From: a virus
Reading direction: 5' to 3' (one strand)
Virus record (IMG/VR): IMGVR_UViG_3300021957_000015
Coordinates: 1-64,000 of that record
Length of the DNA stretch: 64,000 bases
Shown: one piece after another, positions 3,743 to 52,955 of the stretch
How the letters are laid out: every line of letters starts with the position of its first letter
How positions within the stretch are numbered: position 1 is the stretch's first letter
The notes under the pieces: generated by a model
The model's input: only the letters and a program-made list of their open reading frames with translations
What the model was told of the DNA's origin: nothing
The model's database searches: none
Translations under genes and position numbers: made by a program

Positions 3743-3750
3743 GATATATA
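3743..3750 (+). promoter_or_regulatory. Putative late promoter GATATATA
   Basis: Lies right after the terminator and 4 nt before ATG 3755; motif recurs before virion genes. Confidence 0.7.
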
Positions 3751-3754
3751 AAGT

Positions 3755-4453
3755 ATGAAACACATTAAGGCTTACGAAAGTTTTATAAATGAAGGCAGAT
3801 CTAAGTATGATGGCTTAGCATCAAAATTGACTAAACTTACGTTTAAGAAATGGGTAAACACATATAAAGGTGGCAAAGCGGTTATCAATTATATGGACCA
3901 GATCGAAGAACGAGGTTTAGAATTTGACTTTGATGCAACTATTCATATAGACAAAAAATTTAAAGGCTTTGAAGTTTTACCTTCAACTGGTGCAGATGGT
4001 AGAGATGAGGACGATGATGGCGATTATCAAACTCCATACATTCTAATAGATTTTGGTATAAATCCTGATTGGATTCCAGGAGAATGGTCTACTGTATATT
4101 TTCATTTAGCAGATGTTATTAGACATGAAATGGAACACATAACACAGGATGGAGTAGACACTGGTAATTATAGAGCTGGTAAACCTATTGAAGATGATAG
4201 CGAAATAAGAAATCTAATTAACTTAGGTCTTCTACCATACTTTCATTATTTAATGTTACCCAAAGAAGTGGATGCCAATTTACAGGGACTTAGATATGAG
4301 GCTAAAAAAAGAAAAGAGCCAATGAGTGATGCAGTTAACAGATACTTAGACACTCAAATAGAAGGTGACGTAATCAGTAAACAAGAAAAAGAAGAAGTGT
4401 TGGATCTTTGGAGAAAACGCGCAGCAAAAATAGGTGGCATACCAAAATTTTAA
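3755..4453 (+). CDS. Putative virion-internal zinc metallopeptidase-like protein
   Basis: Leader MKHIKAYESFINE; HEMEH (HExxH) plus downstream EVDAN third-ligand-like motif. Confidence 0.65.
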   Translation: MKHIKAYESFINEGRSKYDGLASKLTKLTFKKWVNTYKGGKAVINYMDQIEERGLEFDFDATIHIDKKFKGFEVLPSTGADGRDEDDDGDYQTPYILIDFGINPDWIPGEWSTVYFHLADVIRHEMEHITQDGVDTGNYRAGKPIEDDSEIRNLINLGLLPYFHYLMLPKEVDANLQGLRYEAKKRKEPMSDAVNRYLDTQIEGDVISKQEKEEVLDLWRKRAAKIGGIPKF

Positions 4454-4454
4454 T

Positions 4455-5045
4455 ATGAAATACATAAACACATATGATAGTTTTTTGAATGAAGCTGCAG
4501 GTGGAAAAAAGACTGATGTTTTAAAGAAACATTTCGATAGAACAAATATGACGCTTGCAAAATGGATCAAAAAATATCTATTACCTCAGGAAAAACTTGA
4601 TTCTGAGTCTGATGCAGTTAATCTAATTACAAAGGTCAATAGTCGAAAATATTATAGTAAACTACCAACAATGTATTTCTTTGATGCACCGGCTGAAGAT
4701 CATCCATCAGATAAACTAATTGTACACTTTGTATCATCAGAAAAAATTAGACAAAATATTGTTAAACATGGCTTTATTTACGGTGAACCTGATTATCTTA
4801 AACTAGGTATGAATTGGTCTTCAAGACATAAGCCTAAAAGAGGGGTTGGATATAACTACGGCCTTGATTACGATGATATGTTAGAAAAATACGGGAGCTT
4901 AGAAAAGGGTGCAAAACATTGGGGAGCTTATCCTATTACATTTAAGTCCACTGATGCAATTAAAAATTATCACTTCGGTGACGACGTTGAACAAGTATTA
5001 TTTTGGGGACCGTCAGCGTATGATATAAAAGCAATTGAAATATGA
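4455..5045 (+). CDS. Putative virion-internal protein
   Basis: Start reassigned to ATG 4455 (MKYINTYDSFLNE), just after the upstream stop. Confidence 0.7.
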   Translation: MKYINTYDSFLNEAAGGKKTDVLKKHFDRTNMTLAKWIKKYLLPQEKLDSESDAVNLITKVNSRKYYSKLPTMYFFDAPAEDHPSDKLIVHFVSSEKIRQNIVKHGFIYGEPDYLKLGMNWSSRHKPKRGVGYNYGLDYDDMLEKYGSLEKGAKHWGAYPITFKSTDAIKNYHFGDDVEQVLFWGPSAYDIKAIEI

Positions 5046-8000
5046 AATACATAAATGAAAAGGCGCCTAGCGTAAAAAGCAAAGTTAAGGACATCAATAA
5101 AAAGATTGGTAAACTGATTTCTAAAAAAGAAGATGCTATTAGTAAAGCTAAAGAAATGGCCGATTCTGAAGAACCTTCTGGAAAAATGCAATCAAGTTTA
5201 GCAAAGATACAACTTAGGCAATCTGAAGCAGAAGCTGAAAAGTTACTAATGCAAAAGCAAGCAGAAATACTTAAAGCTAAAATAGATACTGCTAAGAAAA
5301 AAGAAAAAACAACAGCCAACATAGAAGAAATGGAAAATAGACCAATTACAGTACTAGAGGGTGTTATGTCTGATATACATCAGATGATCAGCAACCATAA
5401 AAACTTTGATTCTTTTCAAAAAGAATTCTTTAAAGAGTACGGACATAAAAAAGTAATGAAGAAAACACCAGAATTTTTAGAATGGTTAGAAGCTCTTTAT
5501 AACGACAGTCAATTTGCAGTCGCTGAAGCAGATGCAAAACCAGGACCAGATCCATACATGAGAGGTCTAGATGACGATGAGGAAGAGAAGAAAGAAGATA
5601 AAATGAAAAAGCAAGCTGAAATGGACGATGATGATCCAGATGCTTACAAAGAATTACCAGGTGACAAAGAGGCCAAAGACAAAGGTGAAGTAAAAACTTC
5701 TAAACATGTCAAAAAATATCACGAATTATATGGTGATAAAAAGGACGAATCAGTAGTTACTGAAAAACTAGCTAGAGGTTTAAAGCCATTATTAAAGACA
5801 GGTTCAACTATTACTAAAAAGGTTGGTGAAGATGCATTATTAGATTTATCTGATAAGTTTGATAGCATAGATGATGAATATGCTGGTGATATAGCAAGTC
5901 ATTTGGATATGGCTATTGAATTAATGCAGGATGGTGAAGCAGGAGCCGCTACTAAAAAATTAAAGCAATTTAACAAAGCATGTAAGGATGTTCTTAATGG
6001 AAAGGAAGTTGGTTCAGCATTTGAATCTTTTTCTCAAAAAGATTGGGATGTAAAATGGAAGATGCCTAAAGACAATTTATTCAATGCAACTAAAACTACA
6101 AATGCAATTAATAACAGGTACAACGCTATACGATCCTTACTAAAGTCGAAGCCTACAGAATTAAAAGCCTTTGATAGTACTGACGACCATCCAGCATATG
6201 ACATGTCTTATGATGAGTTAATGAAATGGTTTAAAACCCTAAAAGAATCATTAGATGAAGCAGAAAAATACGATACTAAAGGATTTAAAGTAGGAGATAA
6301 AATTAAAACTAATTTCGGTGAATGGGAAGTAATTGAAACTGATTATGCGCCTAGAAAAAGTTTTACAGCGCCTTTTATATTTAAAGGAAAAGATATGAAA
6401 AGAGTAGACATACCTAATCCTCCTAAAACTAATAAGAATGCTGTAGGTTACAAAGTAACAGACGGTGCTAAATACCCAACTATTGGTTTCTTATATCAAT
6501 ATAAAGATATTACTAAACTTGCAACGGTTGGTGTTGATGAGAAGAATGTAATGCAAGATGATCCTGAAAAATTCGTTGAATCCAAAAATCTTAAGCACAT
6601 TAATCCATTAAAATTTACAGTAAACGAAGAAAAGGCCGAAGGAGATAGAGGTAAAATATCCGATGCTAAAATAGAAACAGCACTTAAAACTAAAGCCGAA
6701 GAAACTGGAGTGCCAATTGGTTTAATAAGAATCGTAATGAGAAGAGGTATGGCCGCATGGAAAACCGGACACAGACCTGGCGCAACTGAACAACAGTGGG
6801 GATATGCACGAGTAAACGCATTCTTAACTAAAGGTGACGGCACATGGGGTGGAGCAGATAAAGATGTTGCTAAAGAAGTTAGAGATGGTGGACATGATAA
6901 AGGTCTAAAGGAAAGAATAGAATCAGATATCAGATTAAGTGATAAAGTAGTAGCATTTAAGACTGAGGCTCCAGCAGATGAAGATTCACAATCTCCTAAT
7001 TCTATTACATGTGGTAATTGTGCATGGACTTGGATGAAACAAGACGGTGGTGATGATATGTATACATGTCACAAGTGTGGAACAGAAAATGCACCTTCAC
7101 TAGGTGAATCTGTGTTAAACGAAGAAGATACTTACAATGATTATCCTGCCGCTGCTAAAAAGAATGCAAAAAAAGCACTTGACTGGCGAGACGAACATGG
7201 AAGAGAAGAAGTAGATGCTGGAACTGCAGTTGGATGGACACGTGCAAATCAATTAGCCAAGGGTGAAAAAATCTCAGCTGACACTATAAAGAGAATGGCA
7301 TCGTTTAACAGACATAGAAAGAATTCTTCAATAAAAGCTGAATTAAAAGGAACTCCATGGAAAGACAAAGGGTATGTTTCTTGGTTAATTTGGGGTGGAG
7401 ATGAAGGTGTCGATTGGGCAATGAAAAAATCAAAAGAATTAGATAATATGAAAGAGTCAAAACAAATGAAATATGTCAAGCACCTTTTTGAAGGTAAAAC
7501 ATTATCGTATGCAAAGGTTAGTATGTTAGGTTCTAAGGTCATAAATAAAATTAGTATTGGAACTATATTAGACACTAAAACTGGTCAATATGAAATTACA
7601 GATCATGGTCGACAGTCTAATGCTTTTAAAGAATTTGAAGCTGAACATAATGGCAAAATAGTAAAGGTGAAATTAACTGTAATGTATGGCATTAAACTAG
7701 AAGCGACAGATGATGTACGTAGTGCTAGATTTGATCAAGAACTAGAACTAAATTCTATTATTTTAGAATCAGCAATCACTGAAGGCATATATGCTAAAAA
7801 AAGTAAAATAACACCTGGTGAATATATTCAAACTCAATATGGTTATTTCTATAAAAGAGTTGAAGGTAAAGTAGGAGGACAAGATGCTTATGTTGAAATA
7901 AAGAAAGGTAAAGAAGGAAAGAGAAAGACAAGCATTCATGATACAGTTGATTTTGATATAGTTGATAAATCTATAGCTCTTAGCGAATCCTTAGTTAATG

Positions 8001-8764
8001 AAGGTAAAATAGTAATTACTAAAAATGAATGGCCGTATCTTGAGTTTAAAGACGGTAGTAGAAGACATAAAGTAGAATTCGACTATGAAGATATTATTGA
8101 TGATCATGGAAACGAGGGTCAAGATCAATATTGGGTAGGTAAAGATGATCAAGGTCAAGAATGGGTTATCGATGTTTATGCTGATATGCGAGGAGAAGTT
8201 GAAGAGGTACACTATGATACTCTGGTAAAAGAATCAACTAAAACACTAAAGTATATTAAACCATTAAATGAAAGTTATTGGAGTAGTTATGAATATGAAA
8301 AGTGGGTTAAAGATAATGGTAAACCTAAATATCCAAAATGGATAAAATCTACTTTAAAAGAAATTACAAATGCAGGGTTTATGGATCCAGTTTACAATTC
8401 TGAACATCAATATATGGTTGTATGGTTAAGTTCATTCGATAATAAAAAAAGATCTGAGCTATTAGCTTATGATAAAAAAGGCATTAAAGAGCTTGGTCAA
8501 ACGGGCTATGAAATGTATAAGAGATTCTACAATGATTTAACAGGTTACAATATGTTCTCTATGATGGGCGCTATATATGCTTTGGAAGTTTCTAAACATA
8601 TTGAAGATAGAGTTGCAAATGGTGAGCCGGTAGAGCCAGCATACTATATGATGAAGGAGTACTTTAACAATATGGGCATGGACACTAAAAGAAGTAGGAT
8701 TTTTAATGCAGCATATGAAAAGTTAGAAAAATGGATGAAAGAAAACAGCATTCCAACTTTATAA
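5042..8764 (+). CDS. 1240-aa multi-module putative virion-internal polyprotein
   Basis: Starts MKYINE; repeated ES-x(n)-(V/L/I)-x-E linkers separate unrelated modules, including a CxxC..CxxC zinc ribbon. Confidence 0.75.
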   Translation: MKYINEKAPSVKSKVKDINKKIGKLISKKEDAISKAKEMADSEEPSGKMQSSLAKIQLRQSEAEAEKLLMQKQAEILKAKIDTAKKKEKTTANIEEMENRPITVLEGVMSDIHQMISNHKNFDSFQKEFFKEYGHKKVMKKTPEFLEWLEALYNDSQFAVAEADAKPGPDPYMRGLDDDEEEKKEDKMKKQAEMDDDDPDAYKELPGDKEAKDKGEVKTSKHVKKYHELYGDKKDESVVTEKLARGLKPLLKTGSTITKKVGEDALLDLSDKFDSIDDEYAGDIASHLDMAIELMQDGEAGAATKKLKQFNKACKDVLNGKEVGSAFESFSQKDWDVKWKMPKDNLFNATKTTNAINNRYNAIRSLLKSKPTELKAFDSTDDHPAYDMSYDELMKWFKTLKESLDEAEKYDTKGFKVGDKIKTNFGEWEVIETDYAPRKSFTAPFIFKGKDMKRVDIPNPPKTNKNAVGYKVTDGAKYPTIGFLYQYKDITKLATVGVDEKNVMQDDPEKFVESKNLKHINPLKFTVNEEKAEGDRGKISDAKIETALKTKAEETGVPIGLIRIVMRRGMAAWKTGHRPGATEQQWGYARVNAFLTKGDGTWGGADKDVAKEVRDGGHDKGLKERIESDIRLSDKVVAFKTEAPADEDSQSPNSITCGNCAWTWMKQDGGDDMYTCHKCGTENAPSLGESVLNEEDTYNDYPAAAKKNAKKALDWRDEHGREEVDAGTAVGWTRANQLAKGEKISADTIKRMASFNRHRKNSSIKAELKGTPWKDKGYVSWLIWGGDEGVDWAMKKSKELDNMKESKQMKYVKHLFEGKTLSYAKVSMLGSKVINKISIGTILDTKTGQYEITDHGRQSNAFKEFEAEHNGKIVKVKLTVMYGIKLEATDDVRSARFDQELELNSIILESAITEGIYAKKSKITPGEYIQTQYGYFYKRVEGKVGGQDAYVEIKKGKEGKRKTSIHDTVDFDIVDKSIALSESLVNEGKIVITKNEWPYLEFKDGSRRHKVEFDYEDIIDDHGNEGQDQYWVGKDDQGQEWVIDVYADMRGEVEEVHYDTLVKESTKTLKYIKPLNESYWSSYEYEKWVKDNGKPKYPKWIKSTLKEITNAGFMDPVYNSEHQYMVVWLSSFDNKKRSELLAYDKKGIKELGQTGYEMYKRFYNDLTGYNMFSMMGAIYALEVSKHIEDRVANGEPVEPAYYMMKEYFNNMGMDTKRSRIFNAAYEKLEKWMKENSIPTL

Positions 8765-8773
8765 AGTAAATTT

Positions 8774-8781
8774 GATATATA
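8774..8781 (+). promoter_or_regulatory. Putative late promoter GATATATA
   Basis: Intergenic, upstream of ATG 8808. Confidence 0.65.
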
Positions 8782-8807
8782 ATAAAAGAAAACAATAATA
8801 AAATATT

Positions 8808-9374
8808 ATGGCAAAACAAATATTATCGTTCGAAGAGTACAGTAAGAACATTAAAGCTTCTGATGTAGGAGAACACGAAAACCCTGAAGGGTATCCAGCA
8901 CCTGAAGGTGAAACTGATGACGTTGAAGATTACAATGACGAAGAAATTGAAGAGTCTGAAGACGAAGAACGTGAAGAAGAGGTTTCTGATGCCGAAGATG
9001 CAGATGAAGCTGAAGTAGACGGTGACGTTGAACAGGGAACTGACAAGGATAAAGATGAGGAAGTAATTATAGTATCTGAAATGATTGCTAAAGTTTACAA
9101 AAATGTTGTAGCTGAAGCATGTAGTTACGTATCAGACGATTATGATAATCATACTTTAGAATCTTATATGAAAGAAAATGCAGCATTAGTTGCAGGAATG
9201 GCAGCACAAGCACTAGAAGAAGCATATAAAGAGATTAACGAAGATCAAGAACTTGCTAACGAAACGTATGAAGCTATGATGAACGAAATGAAAGAAGCAT
9301 ATTCTAATAAAATCGATCAATGTAGAGAATCTTTTACTGGAGCGCCAAGAGGCCACGCTGAAGAAGAAGCATAA
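8808..9374 (+). CDS. Highly acidic putative prohead-core/internal protein
   Basis: MAKQILSFEEY leader; long D/E-rich tract; helical C-terminal half. Confidence 0.6.
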   Translation: MAKQILSFEEYSKNIKASDVGEHENPEGYPAPEGETDDVEDYNDEEIEESEDEEREEEVSDAEDADEAEVDGDVEQGTDKDKDEEVIIVSEMIAKVYKNVVAEACSYVSDDYDNHTLESYMKENAALVAGMAAQALEEAYKEINEDQELANETYEAMMNEMKEAYSNKIDQCRESFTGAPRGHAEEEA

Positions 9375-9391
9375 AAATACCGGGAATAATT

Positions 9392-9688
9392 ATGAAATAC
9401 TTACAACTATTTGAACATTTCATTAATGAAAGATTTAACTCTAAAAGAGCAGAGAAAGAACTAAAAGCAATGGGATTTAAAGGTGCTGATGGCAGTGGAG
9501 GTGAAATTTCAGTTGAAACTGCAGAAATGGAAAATCCATTCGGCAATGATGCAGCATTTACATTCTTTTGGAACGGTAAAGACGTATGGGCAGAAGCTGA
9601 AGATGGTTCTTATGCAGAACAAGCCCAAGAAATCGAAACGGTAGAACAGTTCGCAGACTGTCTTGAATTTGGAGAGGGTTGGTCATAA
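9392..9688 (+). CDS. Putative virion-internal protein
   Basis: Leader MKYLQLFEHFINE. Confidence 0.7.
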   Translation: MKYLQLFEHFINERFNSKRAEKELKAMGFKGADGSGGEISVETAEMENPFGNDAAFTFFWNGKDVWAEAEDGSYAEQAQEIETVEQFADCLEFGEGWS

Positions 9689-38570: not shown

Positions 38571-41500
38571 ATGGCAAAACAATTAATCATATTTGACACT
38601 AGCACATCACACTTAGATTCTTCTAATGTATGTTCTTACGATAGAAGTGGTACACAGTTAACTTTATACTGTAACGATCTTGATGATATTTTAACAGATG
38701 ACAATGTTCAATTATTTACGACATCTGCAGGTGCCGATACTGAAGATGATACGCTTGAGTGGACATTTAGCGGAGACGCTGGTGGTAATTGGTTTTATGT
38801 TCAAAGCATAGAAGGTACGAGTAGACATGGCGCTATTAAAATTCTACCAACGGGCGTAACAGCATCGGGCACAGATGGTAAATTTAGTGCATGTCCACCA
38901 ATATACTCTATTGAATTTCAGGATGACAACGGAAACGCGATCACTAACGCAAATGAAGGTGATACCGTTAAAATATATGTTGATGCATTCTCTGATACCA
39001 GTTTAAATGGTAACACAGTGTCTTTACAGATTGATGGTACTTACAATGGAGCTACTATAGATGACATATCTATAAGTTCATTAACTGACATTGTACTTAG
39101 TGTCGGATCTAGTGTAGGAGCAGATTCTAGACAATTTACAGGTGAGTTAGGATTTGACATCGTATCGGATGCAGACCCAACTGAAGAATTGGTAATTATT
39201 GCTACGCCGGAACAAGTAGGCAGTTCAGCTCAAACAATTACTTTAAATTTATTAGCTGCTCCAACGCCAACACCGACTGCAACTCCGACCGCAACACCAA
39301 CACCAACACCAACTCCTTTACCTGATTTTACATGTGCATTAGCTGCAGTAAACGTAGATGATTTAAATGGACTTGCAGTTGGTACGACTATAGACAGCAA
39401 TGATATACAAATTAGTAACGGTGGTACATTTAACAGTATTACGCCATTAGTTATAGGATCAAATACGCAAACATATGATGTAGTGGTTAATGTGCCATCT
39501 GGTTATAACAACAATGGTACTATTACATGTCAGGTAACAATTGCCGGAGATTCTGCCCCAACAGCTAACGATAACACAATATCGGCTACACAAGGCATAT
39601 CGACAGTGATTGATTTATTTAACTTAGTTATTGATGATAACACAAGCGATAGTAATTTAACATGGAGTATTTCTGAAAGTTCTACATTTAATGGGACGCT
39701 CAGTACGTTTAACCAAGCTACTGGCGCAATAATATATACTGCACCTCAAATATCATTTGGATCACCTGCTATACAGGATACATTTACATACACAGTAGAA
39801 GATAGCATAGGACAAACCGCAACTGGTACTATTACTATTAATGTAAGTGCCGCGAGTAATACTGCACCTACATTTAATAACACACCGTATAACATATCAG
39901 TTGAATTAAACTCAACTGAACCGATAGTTTTTCCGTTTAGCGCGACTGATCAAGAAAATCAAAATATTACATATAGTATTTCTGCGCCTACATTTGGTAC
40001 AGCAACAATAGATTTTAGCACAAATACTTTTTCATATTTGACTGCAGCCGGTAACACAGCACCTGATTCTTTTGTAATAACTGCAACAGACTCTGAAGGC
40101 GCTAGTTCTTCAGAAACTGTTAATGTAACTATTTCAGCTGGTACATATTATGCATTTAATAAAACAGGGTTTTTTGCTAGTGAAGATGAAGCATGTTTAA
40201 CTGAGACAATTAATATAGGATATGCTAGAGTTACTCAGTCTACAAAAATAAGTGATATTGCAGTAGGTGATGAAATCTATTTAGATGAAACAGGTAATCT
40301 GTTTATATCTAATAATGTTTCTAAGTATTTTAAAATTACTCAACTTACAGGAAATGGTAATTTATTAGAACAAGTAATATCTGTAAATTCGTCTGGTATT
40401 GTTGAATCTGTATCATCATGTTCTGTACAATCTGACAAATTTAAAGAGACACTTGTTAGATATTCTGGTTCTGAAACAAGTATTTGTAATAATTTTGGAG
40501 GTGAAAAAGTAAAAGTTGCGTATGGTGTTAACGATAGTTCTGATCCTGCTAAGGATTTACAAACCTTAGTTGCCGATAATACGATATTATTTGTTAGTAG
40601 TTATTGGGCTAACCAGTACTCAAACGGATTTAATGAAGATTTAGAAGGGCAGATACCAGCTGGTTTATATCAAGCAGAGTTTGAAACTTCTACTTATTAT
40701 AAAAGAGGAACTGAAAACAATTGGGTATCTAACCCTGGAGGTTGGTCATGTCCACCTGAAATAGTATATTCTACATATGAATTAAGTAACATATATTATG
40801 CAGATAATATTGATGAACTATGTAACGGTAAAACAACAACAACAAGTCTTTGGTATAGTTTACCCGAAGGCGAAGCTACTAAAGATTTCGACACTATAGT
40901 AAATCTTAATATTCCTGTTTACACTTCCCAACTTACAGCTTCTGAAAATACAATAGAAGGTTTAGCTCAAAGCGGAGTGTATTCTAATAACCTTGATGGT
41001 AGCGGATATGTATGGAATAATGAGGGTGACGGATTTGATTTTAGTTGGTTTGGCTTTAATAGTCAAAATCAATTTATAAAATCAAATGGATCTACTCAAA
41101 TTTTTACACAAAATTGTAACATTATAAAGGCACCTAATATTAATCTTACTAATTTACCAGGAGAAATAGAGGGTGATAGAGGTATAAACGATACCAATGT
41201 GTATTACGCATTCTATGGATGTGAAGCATACGAGGATCAAGATAATAGATTAGGCACTGAGTCATATTATTGGAAATTATATGTAGTAGACGCGGGCGTT
41301 GATGTAGTATTGGATGAAAATGTAACAGTACAAGTAGGCCAAAGCTATCTTAACGATTTTATAAATACATGGCGAGATTCATCAACAGCAGACTATTCAA
41401 CAGATATTGTTTTTCAACCAAATGGATTTAAGTGTGTCTCTTATGTAAATACAATATATGCAGAGGATATAAACAATGCAGCTAATAAGCTTAGTGATCA

Positions 41501-44500
41501 TGGCTACGGAGCAATTAATGATATTAAAATAGTTACTACAAATCCTGTAAATTTAGGATTTGGTAGTGAAAACACAGTAAACATTTATTCTACATGTTTT
41601 GATTGTAGGAATGAATTAAATATAAAAGATAGTTATACCTTTCCAGTAGTTAATGATGCTGCGCTAGATGCATTAGGTCCTAATTTTGATTTAGAAACAA
41701 ATTATAAATTAGATAATGTTTCTAAGCCATTGTTAAGAACCAACCCTAAACTTACAACCAATGTAAAATTAGTTGTAAATTCTGAAGATAAATTATACTT
41801 GGAAAGCATAAGTGCTACAAAAGAATTAGCTGCAATAGAATACAAGAAATTCCCAATAAACAAGGATGGAAAATATTCATACGATGTTGCTAATTTCTAT
41901 AATGTAAATATGACTCCTAATGATCTTATGTTTACTACAAAAAGAGACTATTCAGATATTACTGTTTTAGATTCTTATGAGAAGCAACTAGAAGAGACAT
42001 ACCAGTATGGGACTAATTACAATGCATCAAAATTACATAGTGAAGACTTTAGGATTTTTGCACCTATTTGGTTAGATACAAATATTCCTAAAAACTTTGT
42101 AATTTACAGAGTAAATGATCCAGTAGGATCTCTAAATCTAGGAAACAATGCTGCTGATAATTTTAACAGAATAAAAAGTATATTAAAGAATTCTGAAATA
42201 ATAGAAACGTTTGATTTAACAAGAGATTCTAATATAGGTAACTATTTAAGGAATCATATTCAAGACGAAACATTCCCATCATCTCCGTTAACTATTAATT
42301 TTGAAAAATCTGCAAAATCTAGTTTTAATGGAATAGATCTTATTAAAGGTGGGTTTACACGTAAAGCAGAGTATTTGTATAAGAGTTATTCATTAACAGA
42401 TAAACCATTGATAGAAGCTAACGATTTTATTACAGATTCGTTTAAAAGAAATGAAATTGCTTCCGCAAATTTAATCAACTTAGAATTTTTATTTAACGAT
42501 GACTCGGCTACTGAATATAGCATTAATAGGTATTTCGGTATATATGTTGATGATATAGAATCGGGATATGGTAGAGTTGTTTCGGTAGATGGTAAGGTAT
42601 ACACATTTAAGGAATTAAATTCTACAGTAGATGCTAATGTACCTGAAACTGCTATACCATCATACAATCAAATTAGTAATATGCCGATGTTAGGATATGT
42701 TTCGGCTGGTAATAAATTCTTTAATATTTCTAGTAACACATATTACGATGCTAATCAATGGAAGGTTGCAGTAGAGGACGGTAGTAATAAAATTCAAGAA
42801 CATTTAGGTATTCAAAGCACTAATAGATCAGTTGATCTAGTGTCTAATGATGATCATGGTTATGACTTTATTAAGTTGAGTATAATTGATACTCCGTATA
42901 CTAATGATTCATTAGGAATTACTTATATTAAGGAGGAAGCTAATAGGTTTACATTCATTAAACATGTAGCAAACCAGACTATTAGGTTTGAAATAGATGA
43001 TCCTTCTGACTTTCAGAATACTTTAACGTTTTCTGTAAATAGTCAAAGTACAATAACTGACACAATAGCCGCTATTAAAACACGCGTTGAAACTGAAACA
43101 GATGAGGACTTACCTTTATTTAAAGAAATATATGATATTACATTTGACGATAAGTCAATATTCTTAACTGAAAAGAGAGCTAACTTAGGAGACTTTAATT
43201 TAAGAATTACATCACAAGGTGATTGTATTATTAGAAATGATTCTATTCAAACTAATGTAGGTTTAGAAAAGCACACTTATTATGCTGAGTCCCAGTTAGA
43301 AGCTAAATCATTTAAAGGTTTAAGATATTCTAATCTAGGTACATCTACTGATATTGCAGTTGCTTTATCTTCTTGTATAAACGCAAACGAAACAGAGTTT
43401 ACTTCTATTAACGTAGGAGCTAACGTGTATATTATTAGTAATGTATCTGGTTATCAGTTAATGCAATCTTGTGTTTTATTAGGTAAGACCAATGTAAACG
43501 ATTTTGTTTTATTAGAAAATCTAGATAGCTTAAATAAGCTTAATCTAAGACAGAATTTTCAATTCCTAAGCGGTCAAGCTATTTTACAAAAATTTAATGC
43601 ATATTATTTATCAGGTGGAAATGCGCCAGAAAAATCAGTTTTTGTAAATAACGAAACCGTAAGTGAAATAAACATTAATGATTATATAGAAACCAGATAT
43701 AAAGGTGTATACAATAAAGTTATAGACATAGTTGAAGATATTAGAACGTCTGATAACATATATTCGAAGGTTATTTTAGAAGACAAAAACGATTTAAGTT
43801 CAGGCGATACTAAAATATTTTACGAAAATGAAATTAGATTAGGTTTATTTTCTGCATATAATATCTACGATATGAATTTTGATTTCTATGATACTGATAA
43901 CTCTGAATTAAAAGAATTGGCATACGAAACTCAAGAAGAGATAGAGTATGAACCATATATAAATGCTATTAACAATATTGATGAGGCAACCGGTATAGAA
44001 ACGACCATATTAAGTGCTAGAGATATCTTTAGTGAAGATTTCGAACTAAACCCAATAAATTATTTTTCTAATTTATCTAAAATATTAACAGAGGAATCTG
44101 TTGATGAAGAAGAAGACGAACAATTAACTTCAGAGTATGACAGACTTAAAGAGAACAATTTAAAAAAATATGCAACTAATTCTAGAATAGTACCTAATAT
44201 TAATAAGTGGGTACTTAAGGATACTGTAACAGTTAGGGAACAGCCATATTATTTAAATGTTAACGAAGCATTTGGTAGAACTAATTTCTCCCCGGATTTA
44301 ACAGTATCTGAAAGAAGTCGAGAGTCTATGACACATGAGTGGTTTTATTTAGAGAAGCCACCAAAATATTTAAAATATAATCAACTTAATGACACATTTA
44401 GTTATGTTAATTTTATAGAAGGTTTTGATTTAAGCGCTAATTTATTTAAAAGCACTACTAACAATTATTTTGATAAATTCATGATCAGTGATGGTTTTGA

Positions 44501-46640
44501 AAAAACATTGACTAGTGAAGATTTAGTATCTATATATAGCGACATAAATGAAAACGACACAGAACTTAATTCATTAGAAGGTGAAATAACTTCATTTATT
44601 AAAACTAACATTCTTAAAAAATATACACTAATCGAAGGTGGAAATAATGTATCTTTTGCTAGTACTATATTTAAAGGGATTAAGGTTGATTTTAAAAATA
44701 GAAAAGAATTTGTAAATAGTACTGCTAGTGAATTTGTAAATAGTAGTGAATTTAACGGTTACAAATTTAGTATTTTACTTAAAGTAAATGATAATGTTGA
44801 AACTAATAGTATAGAGTATGAAGTAATTCAAAACAAAGAATTCAAGTTTGTTATTATGTATATTACTTTAAACTTAGGTGATTATTGGATTGATGGAAAC
44901 ATGAATAGAAAATTATTGTATGAATTAAATCATAAAATAGTTTTTGATTCTAATCAAAATGATTTTACATACGCAGATACTAAGTTTAACGGAGCATTAC
45001 AATTTAATAGTACATCTGTAAACTGGGCAGAAGAAGGACCATATACTATTCCGGGTATTCCACATCTTAACGGAAGTTTACCTAAATTTGATTCTCAGAT
45101 AACTTTAGGTGATGATGGATTATATGGTGATATTTACATAGACTTATTTCCAAATGACGATACTAATTCTATTTATAAAGTTAGTGTAGCGGGTGTTGAA
45201 TCTGATAATTCTATAAAAATCACAGGAAAACCTGTTAATGACAATGGAGATATACTCAACATTGAATTTTTACCTAATTCTATTCAAAAGAACGCTTCAT
45301 ATTCATATGTTGGTGGAGGTGCAAACGCACATAGAGTTATATTAGAAAATTTAACAGCTAAATCAGTTGCTGATCTAGTTAATTTAAATAATAATGATGT
45401 TACATATACTACTATAGAAAGTGACGGAACAATTTTAAATAATCAATTTGTAATAAACTTCAGCGATGGTACTGAAATAATAACCAGATCTGACCTGAAT
45501 ATAGAAGAAGACACCGATAAACCCAAGAGTTTTAAATTATTTAAGGGTAATATTGGATATAATCTAATAAAAGAACAAGAGTATTACCCATTCTTAATAA
45601 GACAAAACGGTAAATATACAGTAGATATGAAACCTGTTGTGACATTTACTGATGCGTATTCTCATTTTAAAGTTAATAGATTACATTTAACATCTAACGA
45701 TAACGAATTATTATTTGAACAATCATTGTATAAACATTCGTTAACAGATATAACTGAATTTAACAGAGCAGCTGCTTACTATAAGAAATATAATAAATGT
45801 GGAATAGTATTTAACTTAGGTTATATTAGTGATACTGGTAATCACGATTCAAATTGGGGATTAATAAAAAATCATTTCTATCATAAAGTAAATGAAATAA
45901 ATCCAGGAGGTGTAACTAAACTTTCTGCAACAAGTGATAAATTACCACTTTATCCTTTAATTGGAGAAATAGCAATAGATAAAAAAGACGTAAACGTATT
46001 TAGATCTTCATGGGATTCTGATTATTATACAAGGTCTCTTGCCGGTGGAAATTCGACAAACGTACCCGGAACTTTAGACACACATGAAGAAAGATCATAT
46101 ATGTCCTCTACTGTAATGAAACCTAAGTATTCCTATAATCTTTTAGATTTTAATACATCTTATGTTTCTTCGGAAGAAGAGTTAGATGACATATTAAGAA
46201 ACGGTGATAATTCAAGTGATACCGTATTATTTGAAAATAAAAATTACATTATTATAGACTTTTACATAAGTGATACACTAATTACTAAACTTGCAAAAGA
46301 AGGTGTATTAGATAGCATATCTAAATATGTTTTACCCGCTAATTCAGCTGGAAATAAAGAAACATTAAATGACGATGCACTTATGTATGCTGAGAATAAT
46401 TTAATAAAAACATATATACTTGATTCAGTTCAATTATACACAAAACAATTTAAGGGCAAAGGATCTAAGATTATTAATGCAGTTACTGTAGATCAATTAG
46501 ATGCAGATGGATTTACTCCAGATAATAATAATTTTGCATATAGAAATCACATTCAAAAGCCAATGAATTTTAGGTTGATATATAATAAAAGATTAGGCTA
46601 CTCTTATGATATAAAACCTATGATAAAAATAAAGTCATAA
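38571..46640 (+). CDS. 2689-aa virion protein with N-terminal Ig/cadherin-like domains and a PT linker
   Basis: APTANDN...DTFTYTVED..G.TATGTITINV, NTAPTF...SATDQE, DSFVITATDSEG; PT repeat at about 39261-39317. Confidence 0.7.
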   Translation: MAKQLIIFDTSTSHLDSSNVCSYDRSGTQLTLYCNDLDDILTDDNVQLFTTSAGADTEDDTLEWTFSGDAGGNWFYVQSIEGTSRHGAIKILPTGVTASGTDGKFSACPPIYSIEFQDDNGNAITNANEGDTVKIYVDAFSDTSLNGNTVSLQIDGTYNGATIDDISISSLTDIVLSVGSSVGADSRQFTGELGFDIVSDADPTEELVIIATPEQVGSSAQTITLNLLAAPTPTPTATPTATPTPTPTPLPDFTCALAAVNVDDLNGLAVGTTIDSNDIQISNGGTFNSITPLVIGSNTQTYDVVVNVPSGYNNNGTITCQVTIAGDSAPTANDNTISATQGISTVIDLFNLVIDDNTSDSNLTWSISESSTFNGTLSTFNQATGAIIYTAPQISFGSPAIQDTFTYTVEDSIGQTATGTITINVSAASNTAPTFNNTPYNISVELNSTEPIVFPFSATDQENQNITYSISAPTFGTATIDFSTNTFSYLTAAGNTAPDSFVITATDSEGASSSETVNVTISAGTYYAFNKTGFFASEDEACLTETINIGYARVTQSTKISDIAVGDEIYLDETGNLFISNNVSKYFKITQLTGNGNLLEQVISVNSSGIVESVSSCSVQSDKFKETLVRYSGSETSICNNFGGEKVKVAYGVNDSSDPAKDLQTLVADNTILFVSSYWANQYSNGFNEDLEGQIPAGLYQAEFETSTYYKRGTENNWVSNPGGWSCPPEIVYSTYELSNIYYADNIDELCNGKTTTTSLWYSLPEGEATKDFDTIVNLNIPVYTSQLTASENTIEGLAQSGVYSNNLDGSGYVWNNEGDGFDFSWFGFNSQNQFIKSNGSTQIFTQNCNIIKAPNINLTNLPGEIEGDRGINDTNVYYAFYGCEAYEDQDNRLGTESYYWKLYVVDAGVDVVLDENVTVQVGQSYLNDFINTWRDSSTADYSTDIVFQPNGFKCVSYVNTIYAEDINNAANKLSDHGYGAINDIKIVTTNPVNLGFGSENTVNIYSTCFDCRNELNIKDSYTFPVVNDAALDALGPNFDLETNYKLDNVSKPLLRTNPKLTTNVKLVVNSEDKLYLESISATKELAAIEYKKFPINKDGKYSYDVANFYNVNMTPNDLMFTTKRDYSDITVLDSYEKQLEETYQYGTNYNASKLHSEDFRIFAPIWLDTNIPKNFVIYRVNDPVGSLNLGNNAADNFNRIKSILKNSEIIETFDLTRDSNIGNYLRNHIQDETFPSSPLTINFEKSAKSSFNGIDLIKGGFTRKAEYLYKSYSLTDKPLIEANDFITDSFKRNEIASANLINLEFLFNDDSATEYSINRYFGIYVDDIESGYGRVVSVDGKVYTFKELNSTVDANVPETAIPSYNQISNMPMLGYVSAGNKFFNISSNTYYDANQWKVAVEDGSNKIQEHLGIQSTNRSVDLVSNDDHGYDFIKLSIIDTPYTNDSLGITYIKEEANRFTFIKHVANQTIRFEIDDPSDFQNTLTFSVNSQSTITDTIAAIKTRVETETDEDLPLFKEIYDITFDDKSIFLTEKRANLGDFNLRITSQGDCIIRNDSIQTNVGLEKHTYYAESQLEAKSFKGLRYSNLGTSTDIAVALSSCINANETEFTSINVGANVYIISNVSGYQLMQSCVLLGKTNVNDFVLLENLDSLNKLNLRQNFQFLSGQAILQKFNAYYLSGGNAPEKSVFVNNETVSEININDYIETRYKGVYNKVIDIVEDIRTSDNIYSKVILEDKNDLSSGDTKIFYENEIRLGLFSAYNIYDMNFDFYDTDNSELKELAYETQEEIEYEPYINAINNIDEATGIETTILSARDIFSEDFELNPINYFSNLSKILTEESVDEEEDEQLTSEYDRLKENNLKKYATNSRIVPNINKWVLKDTVTVREQPYYLNVNEAFGRTNFSPDLTVSERSRESMTHEWFYLEKPPKYLKYNQLNDTFSYVNFIEGFDLSANLFKSTTNNYFDKFMISDGFEKTLTSEDLVSIYSDINENDTELNSLEGEITSFIKTNILKKYTLIEGGNNVSFASTIFKGIKVDFKNRKEFVNSTASEFVNSSEFNGYKFSILLKVNDNVETNSIEYEVIQNKEFKFVIMYITLNLGDYWIDGNMNRKLLYELNHKIVFDSNQNDFTYADTKFNGALQFNSTSVNWAEEGPYTIPGIPHLNGSLPKFDSQITLGDDGLYGDIYIDLFPNDDTNSIYKVSVAGVESDNSIKITGKPVNDNGDILNIEFLPNSIQKNASYSYVGGGANAHRVILENLTAKSVADLVNLNNNDVTYTTIESDGTILNNQFVINFSDGTEIITRSDLNIEEDTDKPKSFKLFKGNIGYNLIKEQEYYPFLIRQNGKYTVDMKPVVTFTDAYSHFKVNRLHLTSNDNELLFEQSLYKHSLTDITEFNRAAAYYKKYNKCGIVFNLGYISDTGNHDSNWGLIKNHFYHKVNEINPGGVTKLSATSDKLPLYPLIGEIAIDKKDVNVFRSSWDSDYYTRSLAGGNSTNVPGTLDTHEERSYMSSTVMKPKYSYNLLDFNTSYVSSEEELDDILRNGDNSSDTVLFENKNYIIIDFYISDTLITKLAKEGVLDSISKYVLPANSAGNKETLNDDALMYAENNLIKTYILDSVQLYTKQFKGKGSKIINAVTVDQLDADGFTPDNNNFAYRNHIQKPMNFRLIYNKRLGYSYDIKPMIKIKS
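46577..46584 (+). promoter_or_regulatory. Putative late promoter GATATATA within the 3' end of the upstream gene
   Basis: About 60 nt upstream of ATG 46642. Confidence 0.55.
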
Positions 46641-52403: not shown

Positions 52404-52955
52404 ATGAAACATTTACTTACATTAGAAAGTTATTATTCTTATAAGGATTTTGAAAAAGGAAGATGGGGAACACCTTCTGAAATTGAAGAAGACCTTAGAA
52501 TGACTATTGTAAATTTACTTACATATGCTGGTATTTCAGATAATTTAGATGATGTTGAATACAAAGACGAATCTAATGATAAAGGAATAAAGTGGGAAAT
52601 AACTATCAAGCATTCTGAGGGTACAGATATATTACATGCTTACAAAAGAACTAATTGGAGAGGACAATATGAATTATACTTAAATAAGAAGAAGTCAACT
52701 GCATATGATATTCAACAGACATTCTTAAAAAAGTTTGTATCGCCATTAGATCAATATTTAGCTTCAATGAAGTCGTTTGATAAACACTATCAATATGCAG
52801 ATGATAATAGATCCTACAAAAGTGGGTCGGCACATGCTGAAAGATTAAGAGAAATGTATAAAACATTACAATCTTCGGACAAAAAGAAAGCATATAAAGA
52901 ATTTAATAAAAAACATGGAACTGATTTACCATTTAAGGATTTTTCAGGATCATAA
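52404..52955 (+). CDS. Putative virion-internal protein
   Basis: Leader MKHLLTLESY; AATATATATA upstream. Confidence 0.6.
   Translation: MKHLLTLESYYSYKDFEKGRWGTPSEIEEDLRMTIVNLLTYAGISDNLDDVEYKDESNDKGIKWEITIKHSEGTDILHAYKRTNWRGQYELYLNKKKSTAYDIQQTFLKKFVSPLDQYLASMKSFDKHYQYADDNRSYKSGSAHAERLREMYKTLQSSDKKKAYKEFNKKHGTDLPFKDFSGS

Follow-up and report, generated by a model that had tools for sequence, protein, structure and literature searches.

The window analysed here, 64,000 nucleotides (nt) of viral DNA (positions 1-64,000 of IMG/VR record IMGVR_UViG_3300021957_000015), carries at 5042-8764 an open reading frame (ORF) for a protein of 1240 amino acids (aa) that is built as an array of cassettes joined by short, recurrent linkers. 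Such cassette arrays are real and widespread. We consider it rather likely, judging from sequence, that the product is a capsid-targeted polyprotein, which a peptidase S77 prohead protease would cut at [LIV]-x-E linkers into internal proteins of 6.7-19.5 kDa, the sizes predicted for the modules. The phage that carries it is a marine jumbo T4-like myovirus. The full record (79 kb, about 29% complete) has a base composition of 32% G+C and holds all its genes on the + strand; those in the window include T4-type baseplate, hub and neck genes, a helicase and a dCMP deaminase, and no tRNA genes were found there. The baseplate wedge protein shares 27-28% identity with Tenacibaculum jumbo phages and 41% with an uncultured huge phage. 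Cultured phages are only distant relatives of this one; by the baseplate protein the closest of them are the Tenacibaculum phages pT24 and PTm1.

Linkers, modules and cassette exchange

The original prediction, made from the nucleotide sequence of the window, had read the protein as about ten unrelated modules separated by protease-site junctions. All nine proposed junctions are present and end exactly at 5359, 5764, 6259, 6628, 7123, 7492, 7783, 8002 and 8272. The protein contains 11 ES dipeptides, eight of which open a junction, and the short linker ES-x(0-2)-[LIVMFA]-x-E occurs five times against 0.52 expected (none of 5000 shuffles reached five). Elsewhere in the window, which has 56 further ORFs, the motif is rare; an N-terminal leader accounts for one of the few copies. 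Linker codons vary synonymously (TCA, TCT, TCC; GTA, GTG, TTA, GCA) with a constant peptide pattern, which argues for selection on the peptide and not merely for DNA homology. Among 916 junctions in 240 family members, ESVLNE (125), ESVVNE (94), ESVNE (85) and ESVTE (63) are commonest, and the residue after the junction Glu is E, A or G in 726, so that the family consensus reads E-S-V-[VL]-[NT]-E, then E, A or G. Anchoring on the core of module F, which is independent of the motif, gave the same picture: [LIVMFA]-x-E ends 0-4 aa upstream in 134 of 141 distinct internal contexts, against a chance level of about 13% estimated from composition. The T4 prohead protease gp21 cleaves after L/I-x-E (PMC9026906), a motif that the polyprotein linkers fit. 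Like the T4 core and scaffold proteins, the window protein has multiple internal sites of this type, namely the nine junctions plus sub-junctions.

The blocks between the junctions are indeed unrelated, as no pair of modules showed significant similarity in an all-against-all comparison (best E 0.013). Their number had to be revised: ten blocks stand, but comparison with relatives splits each of blocks B, C and E in two, so the gene holds about 13 evolutionary modules (Table 1; a slash marks a predicted cut). Module B consists of B1 (aa 107-162, ending FAVAE/) and the acidic B2 (aa 163-241, ending ESVVTE/); in relatives B2 also stands directly behind a leader, with the N-terminus MKIFNTFQQFLNE/ANAKPGPDPYM, and in gp130 of Pelagibacter phage HTVC008M directly before DUF5824. 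C1 (aa 242-327) and C2 (aa 328-406) each occur alone in relatives, bounded by GSAFESVVAE/ or ESVNE/, and the linker between them is degraded in the window gene (GSAFES/FSQKDW, aa 322-333). Module D ends in relatives at TVGVDESVVNE/, and the element PEKF.ES..LKYIKPLNE/ is separate there, lying just before module J. In module E, E1 (about aa 530-627) is DUF5824 (PF19141; Pfam match at aa 551-607, E 1.3e-14, 54.9 bits against a cutoff of 25) and E2 (about aa 648-694) is a Cys4 zinc ribbon, the predicted CGNC...CHKC having been located at about aa 651-675. The HTVC008M protein (L033 4441-6231), annotated as a cytidyltransferase, is multi-modular too: behind its start, MKTLKELL, it combines a nucleotidyltransferase and a middle region with an acidic segment like B2 and with DUF5824. 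It has a few [LIV]-x-E sites and no ES..NE linkers.

Profile scans of the whole protein with Pfam and PHROG returned only DUF5824, phrog_3041 (C-terminal part) and phrog_2859, and Pfam at E up to 1 gave only DUF5824 and a sub-threshold HypA-like zinc ribbon. A PDB sequence search with the polyprotein found no match, and the PHROG, Pfam and PDB sequence searches revealed no similarity to the T4 internal proteins (IPs) IPI, IPII and IPIII or to Alt. For module F an Atlas search matched unnamed viral clusters only (score 0.88), with DUF6321 as a weak lead; module J gave no lead in Pfam, PHROG or Atlas.

Comparison with relatives strongly supports the cassette reading. Searching 5.8 billion proteins brought up hundreds of relatives, which measure 300-1534 aa and come for the most part from marine metagenomes. 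With the whole query, BLAST alignment endpoints showed just about 3-fold enrichment at junctions, because alignments continue through the similar linkers; the query was therefore cut at the nine junctions and each block compared separately with the relatives by BLAST. The block alignments span whole blocks and abut at linkers, in differing orders and combinations. More than 40 architectures occur in the sample (for example, A-B-x-E-F-D-C-H-G-I-x-J, A-B-E-F-I-x-H-J and x-F-D-C-B-x-G-H-x-E), and the order of G and H is reversed in P0002, P0003 and P0026. Both the number and the order of modules thus differ among relatives, with the breaks at linkers; shuffling was one of the tests offered with the original prediction. 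An invariant order is not what we found, but neither is the order wholly free: A-B is N-terminal wherever both co-occur, J always comes last and F is nearly universal.

Exchange is also visible between close relatives. Two proteins that are 99% identical (P0006 and P0008) differ by one clean 92-aa cassette at a linker, and two others (P0012 and P0013; 96-98% identical) by one clean 144-aa cassette, again at a linker. Contigs from four public runs were compared with the locus. One from another study's metagenome (X5) joins 5758 to 6623, skipping 864 nt that correspond exactly to C and D, which brings B next to E, the arrangement of most relatives. The points at which several contigs depart from the window sequence (5747/5764, 6247, 7471, 7778, 7989 and 8003) all lie within linkers. 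An independent 2025 seawater study contains the arrangement of the window, recovered piecewise with 0-2 differences. A metatranscriptome run (X17) has contigs that match the gene in places, with 88-99% identity; because these may stem from carried-over DNA, they were not counted as expression. Together, these comparisons identify the conserved linkers as the sites of cassette insertion, deletion and reordering.

Leaders, head genes and a route into the capsid

The modules also occur outside arrays, as the original prediction had anticipated: F, G, H and I were each found as separate genes. These stand-alone genes start with a leader that resembles the T4 capsid-targeting sequence (CTS), for example MKHIKLFEDFINE/, and that ends at the same residue as the linker (MKHIKLFEDFINE/AEETYNDYP and MKHIKLFEQFVNE/G). 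For module F, stand-alone homologues number more than 250; they are 67-216 aa long, and many have leaders or lie on contigs of 20-250 kb. Many read MK[HY]IKLFE.F[IV]NE and then directly the F core. Other short genes combine a leader, the zinc ribbon and F, or a leader, another module, ESVVLE and F. A search with G-H-I against 1.84 billion representatives returned 126 clusters, mostly single-module matches at varied positions, and leaders precede a single G (P0460, P0442, P0414 and P0445), H (P0458, MKHIKLFEQFVNE/G...) or I (P0374). Among the family members, 203 of 240 begin M...[FILVMY]-x-E within 20 aa, typically M[KR][YFH]IK[PS]LNE/. For comparison, the T4 CTS is MKTYQEFIAE, with processing determinants at positions 8 and 10 (PMC8442874), and the propeptides of T4 IPs, 10-19 aa long, target the prohead core (PMC9026906). 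An Asp at position 10 of the T4 CTS prevents processing. The leaders MKHIKAYESFINE/, MKYINTYDSFLNE/ and MKYLQLFEHFINE/ of neighbouring genes in the window resemble this T4 sequence.

Leaders and linkers share one origin in at least part of the array. Letter for letter, Met included, the family N-terminus M[KR][YFH]IKPLNE recurs within the internal long linker ESKQ-MKYIKPLNE, and stand-alone F genes end just ahead of an element of this type; on these grounds the long linkers are fossil gene starts. The short linker ESV.NE corresponds to the tail of the leader (ESFINE, DSFLNE). Arrays probably grew by fusion of whole leader-tagged genes, whereby the downstream leader became the linker; such fusions would explain the linkers. 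Fossil Met codons, such as that at 7466, could still serve as translation starts.

A protease of the T4 gp21 type is encoded in relatives. Five of five larger related records encode a PF03420 (S77, T4 gp21-type) prohead protease above the curated cutoff. In the complete 276-kb relative G002, the protease matches the PHROG head maturation protease (6e-49) and the gene order runs terminase, portal, a 290-aa ORF, a 515-aa array with five linkers, protease, three arrays, an acidic scaffold-like protein and the major capsid protein. The three arrays after the protease start MIKLTDLLQE, MIKLTQLMNE and MEEMLINE, and one contains module G. The G002 capsid protein has a T4-like site, QLLDE/A, near residue 62, a parallel to the FLTE/A site of T4 gp23. 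The G002 protease itself starts MANLLIE, which recalls the LIE-9 noted in T4 gp21 (PMC9026906). In G001 and G003 (L030 1429-3342 and L031 1429-3342) the S77 protease gene lies directly after the portal gene and continues into a long acidic coiled-coil tail that resembles a scaffold and has [VL]-A-E and Y.E..AE repeats, a gp21-gp22-like fusion. In unrelated phages, module F (PHROG 2859) lies inside the 888-aa 'prohead protease' gene 11 of Halovirus HGTV-1 (L034 2136-4802) and at the N-terminus of an 874-aa 'major capsid protein' fusion, gene 38 of Roseobacter phage CRP-701 (L035 3450-6074), and in both it would end up inside the procapsid; it stands alone as gp459 (L036 2423-2812) in the 440-kb Salicola phage SCTP-2. 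By these matches, module F is a widespread head-associated domain.

We propose the following route. The polyprotein would be expressed late from a three-gene operon and enter the core of the assembling prohead through its N-terminal T4-CTS-like leader, perhaps aided by internal fossil leaders. A gp21-type (peptidase S77) protease would then cut after the Glu of each linker, at E-S-V-[VL]-[NT]-E/ with E, A or G next, and free about 10-13 small proteins of the predicted sizes inside the head. On the model of T4 IPI-III and Alt, the products would be retained and then ejected together with the DNA when the next cell is infected. The motif, the modularity, the shuffling, the leader-tagged stand-alone genes, the type of protease in relatives and, in one relative, the place in the head cluster are observed; cleavage, packaging and ejection are inferred, and the term effectors in the original prediction is a guess. 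More tentatively, one and the same peptide of marine jumbo T4-like phages may serve as address tag, protease site and recombination joint; whole leader-tagged genes could then be fused, swapped or deleted in frame, and from a single translation product a phage could inject an equimolar, strain-specific dozen of proteins as a fast-evolving takeover or anti-defence arsenal; we hold this as a possibility and would not favour it over its negation.

The protein could instead stay uncut and act in the virion or the cell as one long multidomain protein of the 'polyvalent' type, its linkers kept as recombination joints or spacers. Cassette insertions, deletions and joints do fall inside the linkers, which hence act as exchange points, and large uncut multidomain virion proteins exist, such as the N4 virion RNA polymerase (cited in PMC5512222). 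We nevertheless regard this as unlikely, since codons vary synonymously under a constant [LIV]-x-E and a small or acidic residue behind it, a sign that the peptide and not DNA homology is being selected, the same motif closes the N-terminal leaders of stand-alone genes, where a joint is needless, and the motif equals the specificity of gp21, whose S77 family is present in all five relatives.

Structure prediction bears on folding of the modules. The AlphaFold model of module F (80-sequence alignment) is a compact five-helix domain with a predicted local distance difference test (pLDDT) score of 94.8, for which no fold match was found in the PDB (Foldseek best E 2.8; VIA-align wide best Z 4.5). 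The full-length model was built from a cleaned but shallow alignment (A4), because shuffled modules and fragments were wrongly placed in A2 and A3. It is confident only for F and moderate for A, B1, C1, E1 and I, with helices in A at 11-87 (pLDDT 55-79) and beta strands in I at 988-1060 (52-71). Nine of nine junctions lie in stretches below pLDDT 50, as do 63% of residues. Compact domains bounded by disordered linkers had been expected: no junction falls inside a confidently folded domain, but the pattern as a whole is not clearly seen, and with so poor a model and so many residues below 50 the check is weakly informative.

Folded modules matter for another alternative, in which the prohead protease does cut the protein but the fragments are assembly material, core- or scaffold-like (compare T4 gp22, gp67 and gp68), and are expelled before DNA packaging. 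In T4, the protease breaks core proteins at L/I-x-E into several fragments, most of which leave the head (PMC9026906); module A is long, Lys-rich and helical, B2 is acidic and disordered, and the G002 arrays lie between protease and scaffold genes. Against this, most modules are conserved folded domains (F with its confident model, the zinc ribbon, DUF5824 and the beta domains), they are freely exchanged and also occur as single leader-tagged genes, and the window gene stands outside the head morphogenesis cluster. Module content is, moreover, hypervariable between near-identical phages, a pattern typically seen in cargo involved in conflicts, not in parts essential for assembly. We give a role in assembly a low probability.

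Several observations weigh against a cut and packaged polyprotein. The full-length model is poor (mean pLDDT 48), and junctions 241, 406 and 817 were modelled as helix, which does not clearly agree with the disordered linkers that had been expected. The first junction, TVLE/G (5359), has no ES prefix; the leader of six residues (MKYINE) is shorter than the T4 CTS; and the modules range in isoelectric point (pI) from 4.6 to 9.5, the latter in module A, and are not uniformly basic like T4 IPs. No S77 protease matched in the phage's own 79-kb record, which is about 29% complete. The gene sits between endonuclease and dCMP deaminase/helicase genes, in a region that separates nucleotide-metabolism genes from the baseplate cluster and lies 5′ of the latter, and so outside the head cluster, unlike the arrays of G002. 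Finally, a conserved HExxH gene directly upstream could encode the processing enzyme instead.

In that last case the cutter would be the leader-tagged HExxH protein (3755-4453), packaged with the array and acting in the head or after injection. Its gene lies immediately upstream in seven related loci, its H-E-x-x-H is invariant and it has a leader of its own; release by embedded metallopeptidases has also been proposed for polyvalent proteins (Iyer et al. 2017, PMC5512222). However, G002 has four arrays with the same linkers and lacks an HExxH homologue, and such a homologue occurs in two of five larger relatives against the S77 protease in five of five, which weakens the case. The HExxH protein matches no peptidase family or structure. 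To our knowledge the linker motif, moreover, corresponds to the known specificity of S77 and to that of no zincin we could name. We therefore judge the HExxH protein very unlikely to be the cutter and retain the S77 prohead protease as the preferred candidate.

Relation to known systems

In T4, the capsid-targeting leader and its processing by gp21 are textbook knowledge, and we know of such leader processing so far only for single small genes in coliphages. The array works, by analogy, like the T4 system of CTS, IPs and gp21, with cargo that is not homologous to the IPs; the difference lies in the many cassettes chained in one frame. Shared with IPI, IPII, IPIII and Alt are a short leader of the MK..(Y/F)..F(I/L).E type ending L/I-x-E, a cognate type of protease in the relatives, arrays next to head genes in the complete relative, small products (predicted 6.7-19.5 kDa here against about 8-20 kDa in T4) and a hypervariable set of proteins within an otherwise conserved genome frame. 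In contrast, T4 has one gene and one leader per protein, whereas here up to about 13 unrelated modules share one frame, and the leader serves a second time, whole or as its last six residues, as the linker inside the protein. The window modules lack sequence homology to the IPs and are not uniformly basic.

Polyvalent proteins (Iyer et al. 2017, PMC5512222) likewise join many unrelated domains in one polypeptide, are mosaic, are predicted to be delivered with the DNA and have been likened to polyproteins. The window protein, with about 13 modules and more than 40 architectures among its relatives, falls within their range of 2-15 unrelated domains. It differs in that the MuF, ART, MTase/methylase, ParB and zincin repertoire was undetected, with DUF5824 as the only Pfam domain; in that Pfam found no embedded peptidase in the ORF, the HExxH protein being a separate upstream gene; and in that its modules are separated by a regular, conserved linker of prohead-protease type.

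The inner-body and ejection proteins of phiKZ, 201phi2-1 and SPN3US also belong to jumbo myoviruses, and they are cut after Glu by a diverged gp21 homologue, at S/A/G-x-E or A-x-E sites (PMC5694885, PMC10052503), and then ejected. Their cuts, unlike those proposed here, mostly strip propeptides from the products of separate genes, and the sources consulted describe no regular array of swappable cassettes joined by a repeated linker. Cargo fused to MuF, portal, protease and capsid genes (Iyer et al. 2022, PMC9503650) follows the same logic of entering the head on an assembly protein, and module F occurs in such fusions (HGTV-1, CRP-701); the carrier here, by contrast, would be a short leader plus a chain of other cargo modules, with no structural head protein. 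Positive-strand RNA virus polyproteins resemble the array in that a viral protease divides a single translation product into functional units at short motifs that recur, and differ in realm, protease family and purpose, the array holding accessory hypervariable cargo and not replication machinery. In the open-access literature we found no described prohead-protease-processed polyprotein in T4-like or jumbo phages.

The T4 logic of leader and gp21 thus appears to have been scaled up to hypervariable polyprotein arrays, which are abundant in marine metagenomes (hundreds of family members with 3 to more than 12 modules each). If the products are cut and injected, the arrays would represent a large and unexplored reservoir of small phage proteins delivered at infection and candidate anti-defence or takeover factors. 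The leader and the ES-V-V-N/T-E linkers would then supply a sequence rule for recognizing virion cargo in uncultured phages, and in-frame exchange of cassettes would use the protease site as a recombination joint as well.

Operon, neighbours and other genes of the window

The polyprotein gene is the last of a three-gene operon (Table 1). A terminator-like hairpin lies immediately 5′ of the GATATATA motif that heads the operon. The motif has 12 copies in the window, all 12 on the + (coding) strand and mostly just 5′ of structural genes (positions include 3743, 8774, 15142, 23348, 38514, 53447 and 59037), and this phage group probably uses it as its late promoter. The T4 late promoter is TATAAATA.

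Table 1 Features of the polyprotein locus (a slash marks a predicted cut)
Feature	Position	Strand	Remarks
GATATATA motif, late-promoter-like	3743..3750	+	heads three-gene operon 3755-8764
Operon gene 1, 232 aa, leader MKHIKAYESFINE/ and HExxH motif	3755..4453	+	candidate packaged zincin/metallopeptidase
Operon gene 2, 196 aa, leader MKYINTYDSFLNE/	4455..5045	+	stop overlaps polyprotein start (ATGA)
Polyprotein ORF, 1240 aa	5042-8764	+	third gene of operon
N-terminal leader MKYINE/	5042..5059	+	I-N-E fits I-x-E
Module A, aa 7-106, Lys-rich long helices	5060..5359	+	ends TVLE/G; BLAST borders 1-106 in relatives
Module B, aa 107-241	5360..5764	+	B1 and B2; ends ESVVTE/; linker 5747-5764
Module C, aa 242-406	5765..6259	+	C1 and C2; ends ESLDE/A; linker 6245-6259
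Module D, aa 407-529	6260..6628	+	beta-rich core, about aa 407-500, and leader-like tail DDPEKFVESKNLKHINPLKFTVNE/
Module E, aa 530-694	6629..7123	+	E1 and E2; ends ESVLNE/E; linker 7106-7123
Module F, aa 695-817, compact Trp-rich helical domain	7124..7492	+	ends in fossil gene start ESKQ-MKYVKHLFE/ (7454-7492)
Module G, aa 818-914, small beta domain	7493..7783	+	ends ESAITE/G; linker 7766-7783
Module H, aa 915-987, small beta domain	7784..8002	+	ends ESLVNE/G; linker 7985-8002
Module I, aa 988-1077, acidic beta domain	8003..8272	+	fossil leader ESTKTLKYIKPLNE/ at 8231-8272
Module J, aa 1078-1240, aromatic-rich helical, plus stop codon	8273..8764	+	always C-terminal
Second GATATATA motif and two genes	8774..9688	+	directly 3′ of polyprotein gene
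Acidic 188-aa protein	8808-9374	+	own GATATATA motif; adjoins mosaic gene in relatives too
98-aa protein, leader MKYLQLFEHFINE/	9392-9688	+	adjoins mosaic gene in relatives too

The flanks of the locus (endonuclease, HExxH protein, acidic protein and dCMP deaminase) are kept at 55-98% identity among relatives, and the gene between them is the mosaic. The HExxH gene stands directly 5′ of the mosaic gene in the seven related loci (55-98% identity), where H124, E125 and H128 and a KEVDANLQGLR motif are invariant; the protein found no match in Pfam, PHROG or PDB. The second operon gene was found, among the related loci, only in L002. Downstream, the 188-aa and 98-aa proteins look like further head-internal proteins, and in distant relatives the conservation of the former is limited to its C-terminal half.

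Other leader-like gene starts in the window lie at 52404, 53459 and 60965 (MKHLLTLESYY..., MKTFNKYLVE/ and MKIYTDFSTFITE/), so tagged cargo may extend beyond one locus. The tail or fibre region holds a 2689-aa ORF (38571-46640), with a 1268-aa ORF immediately ahead of it.

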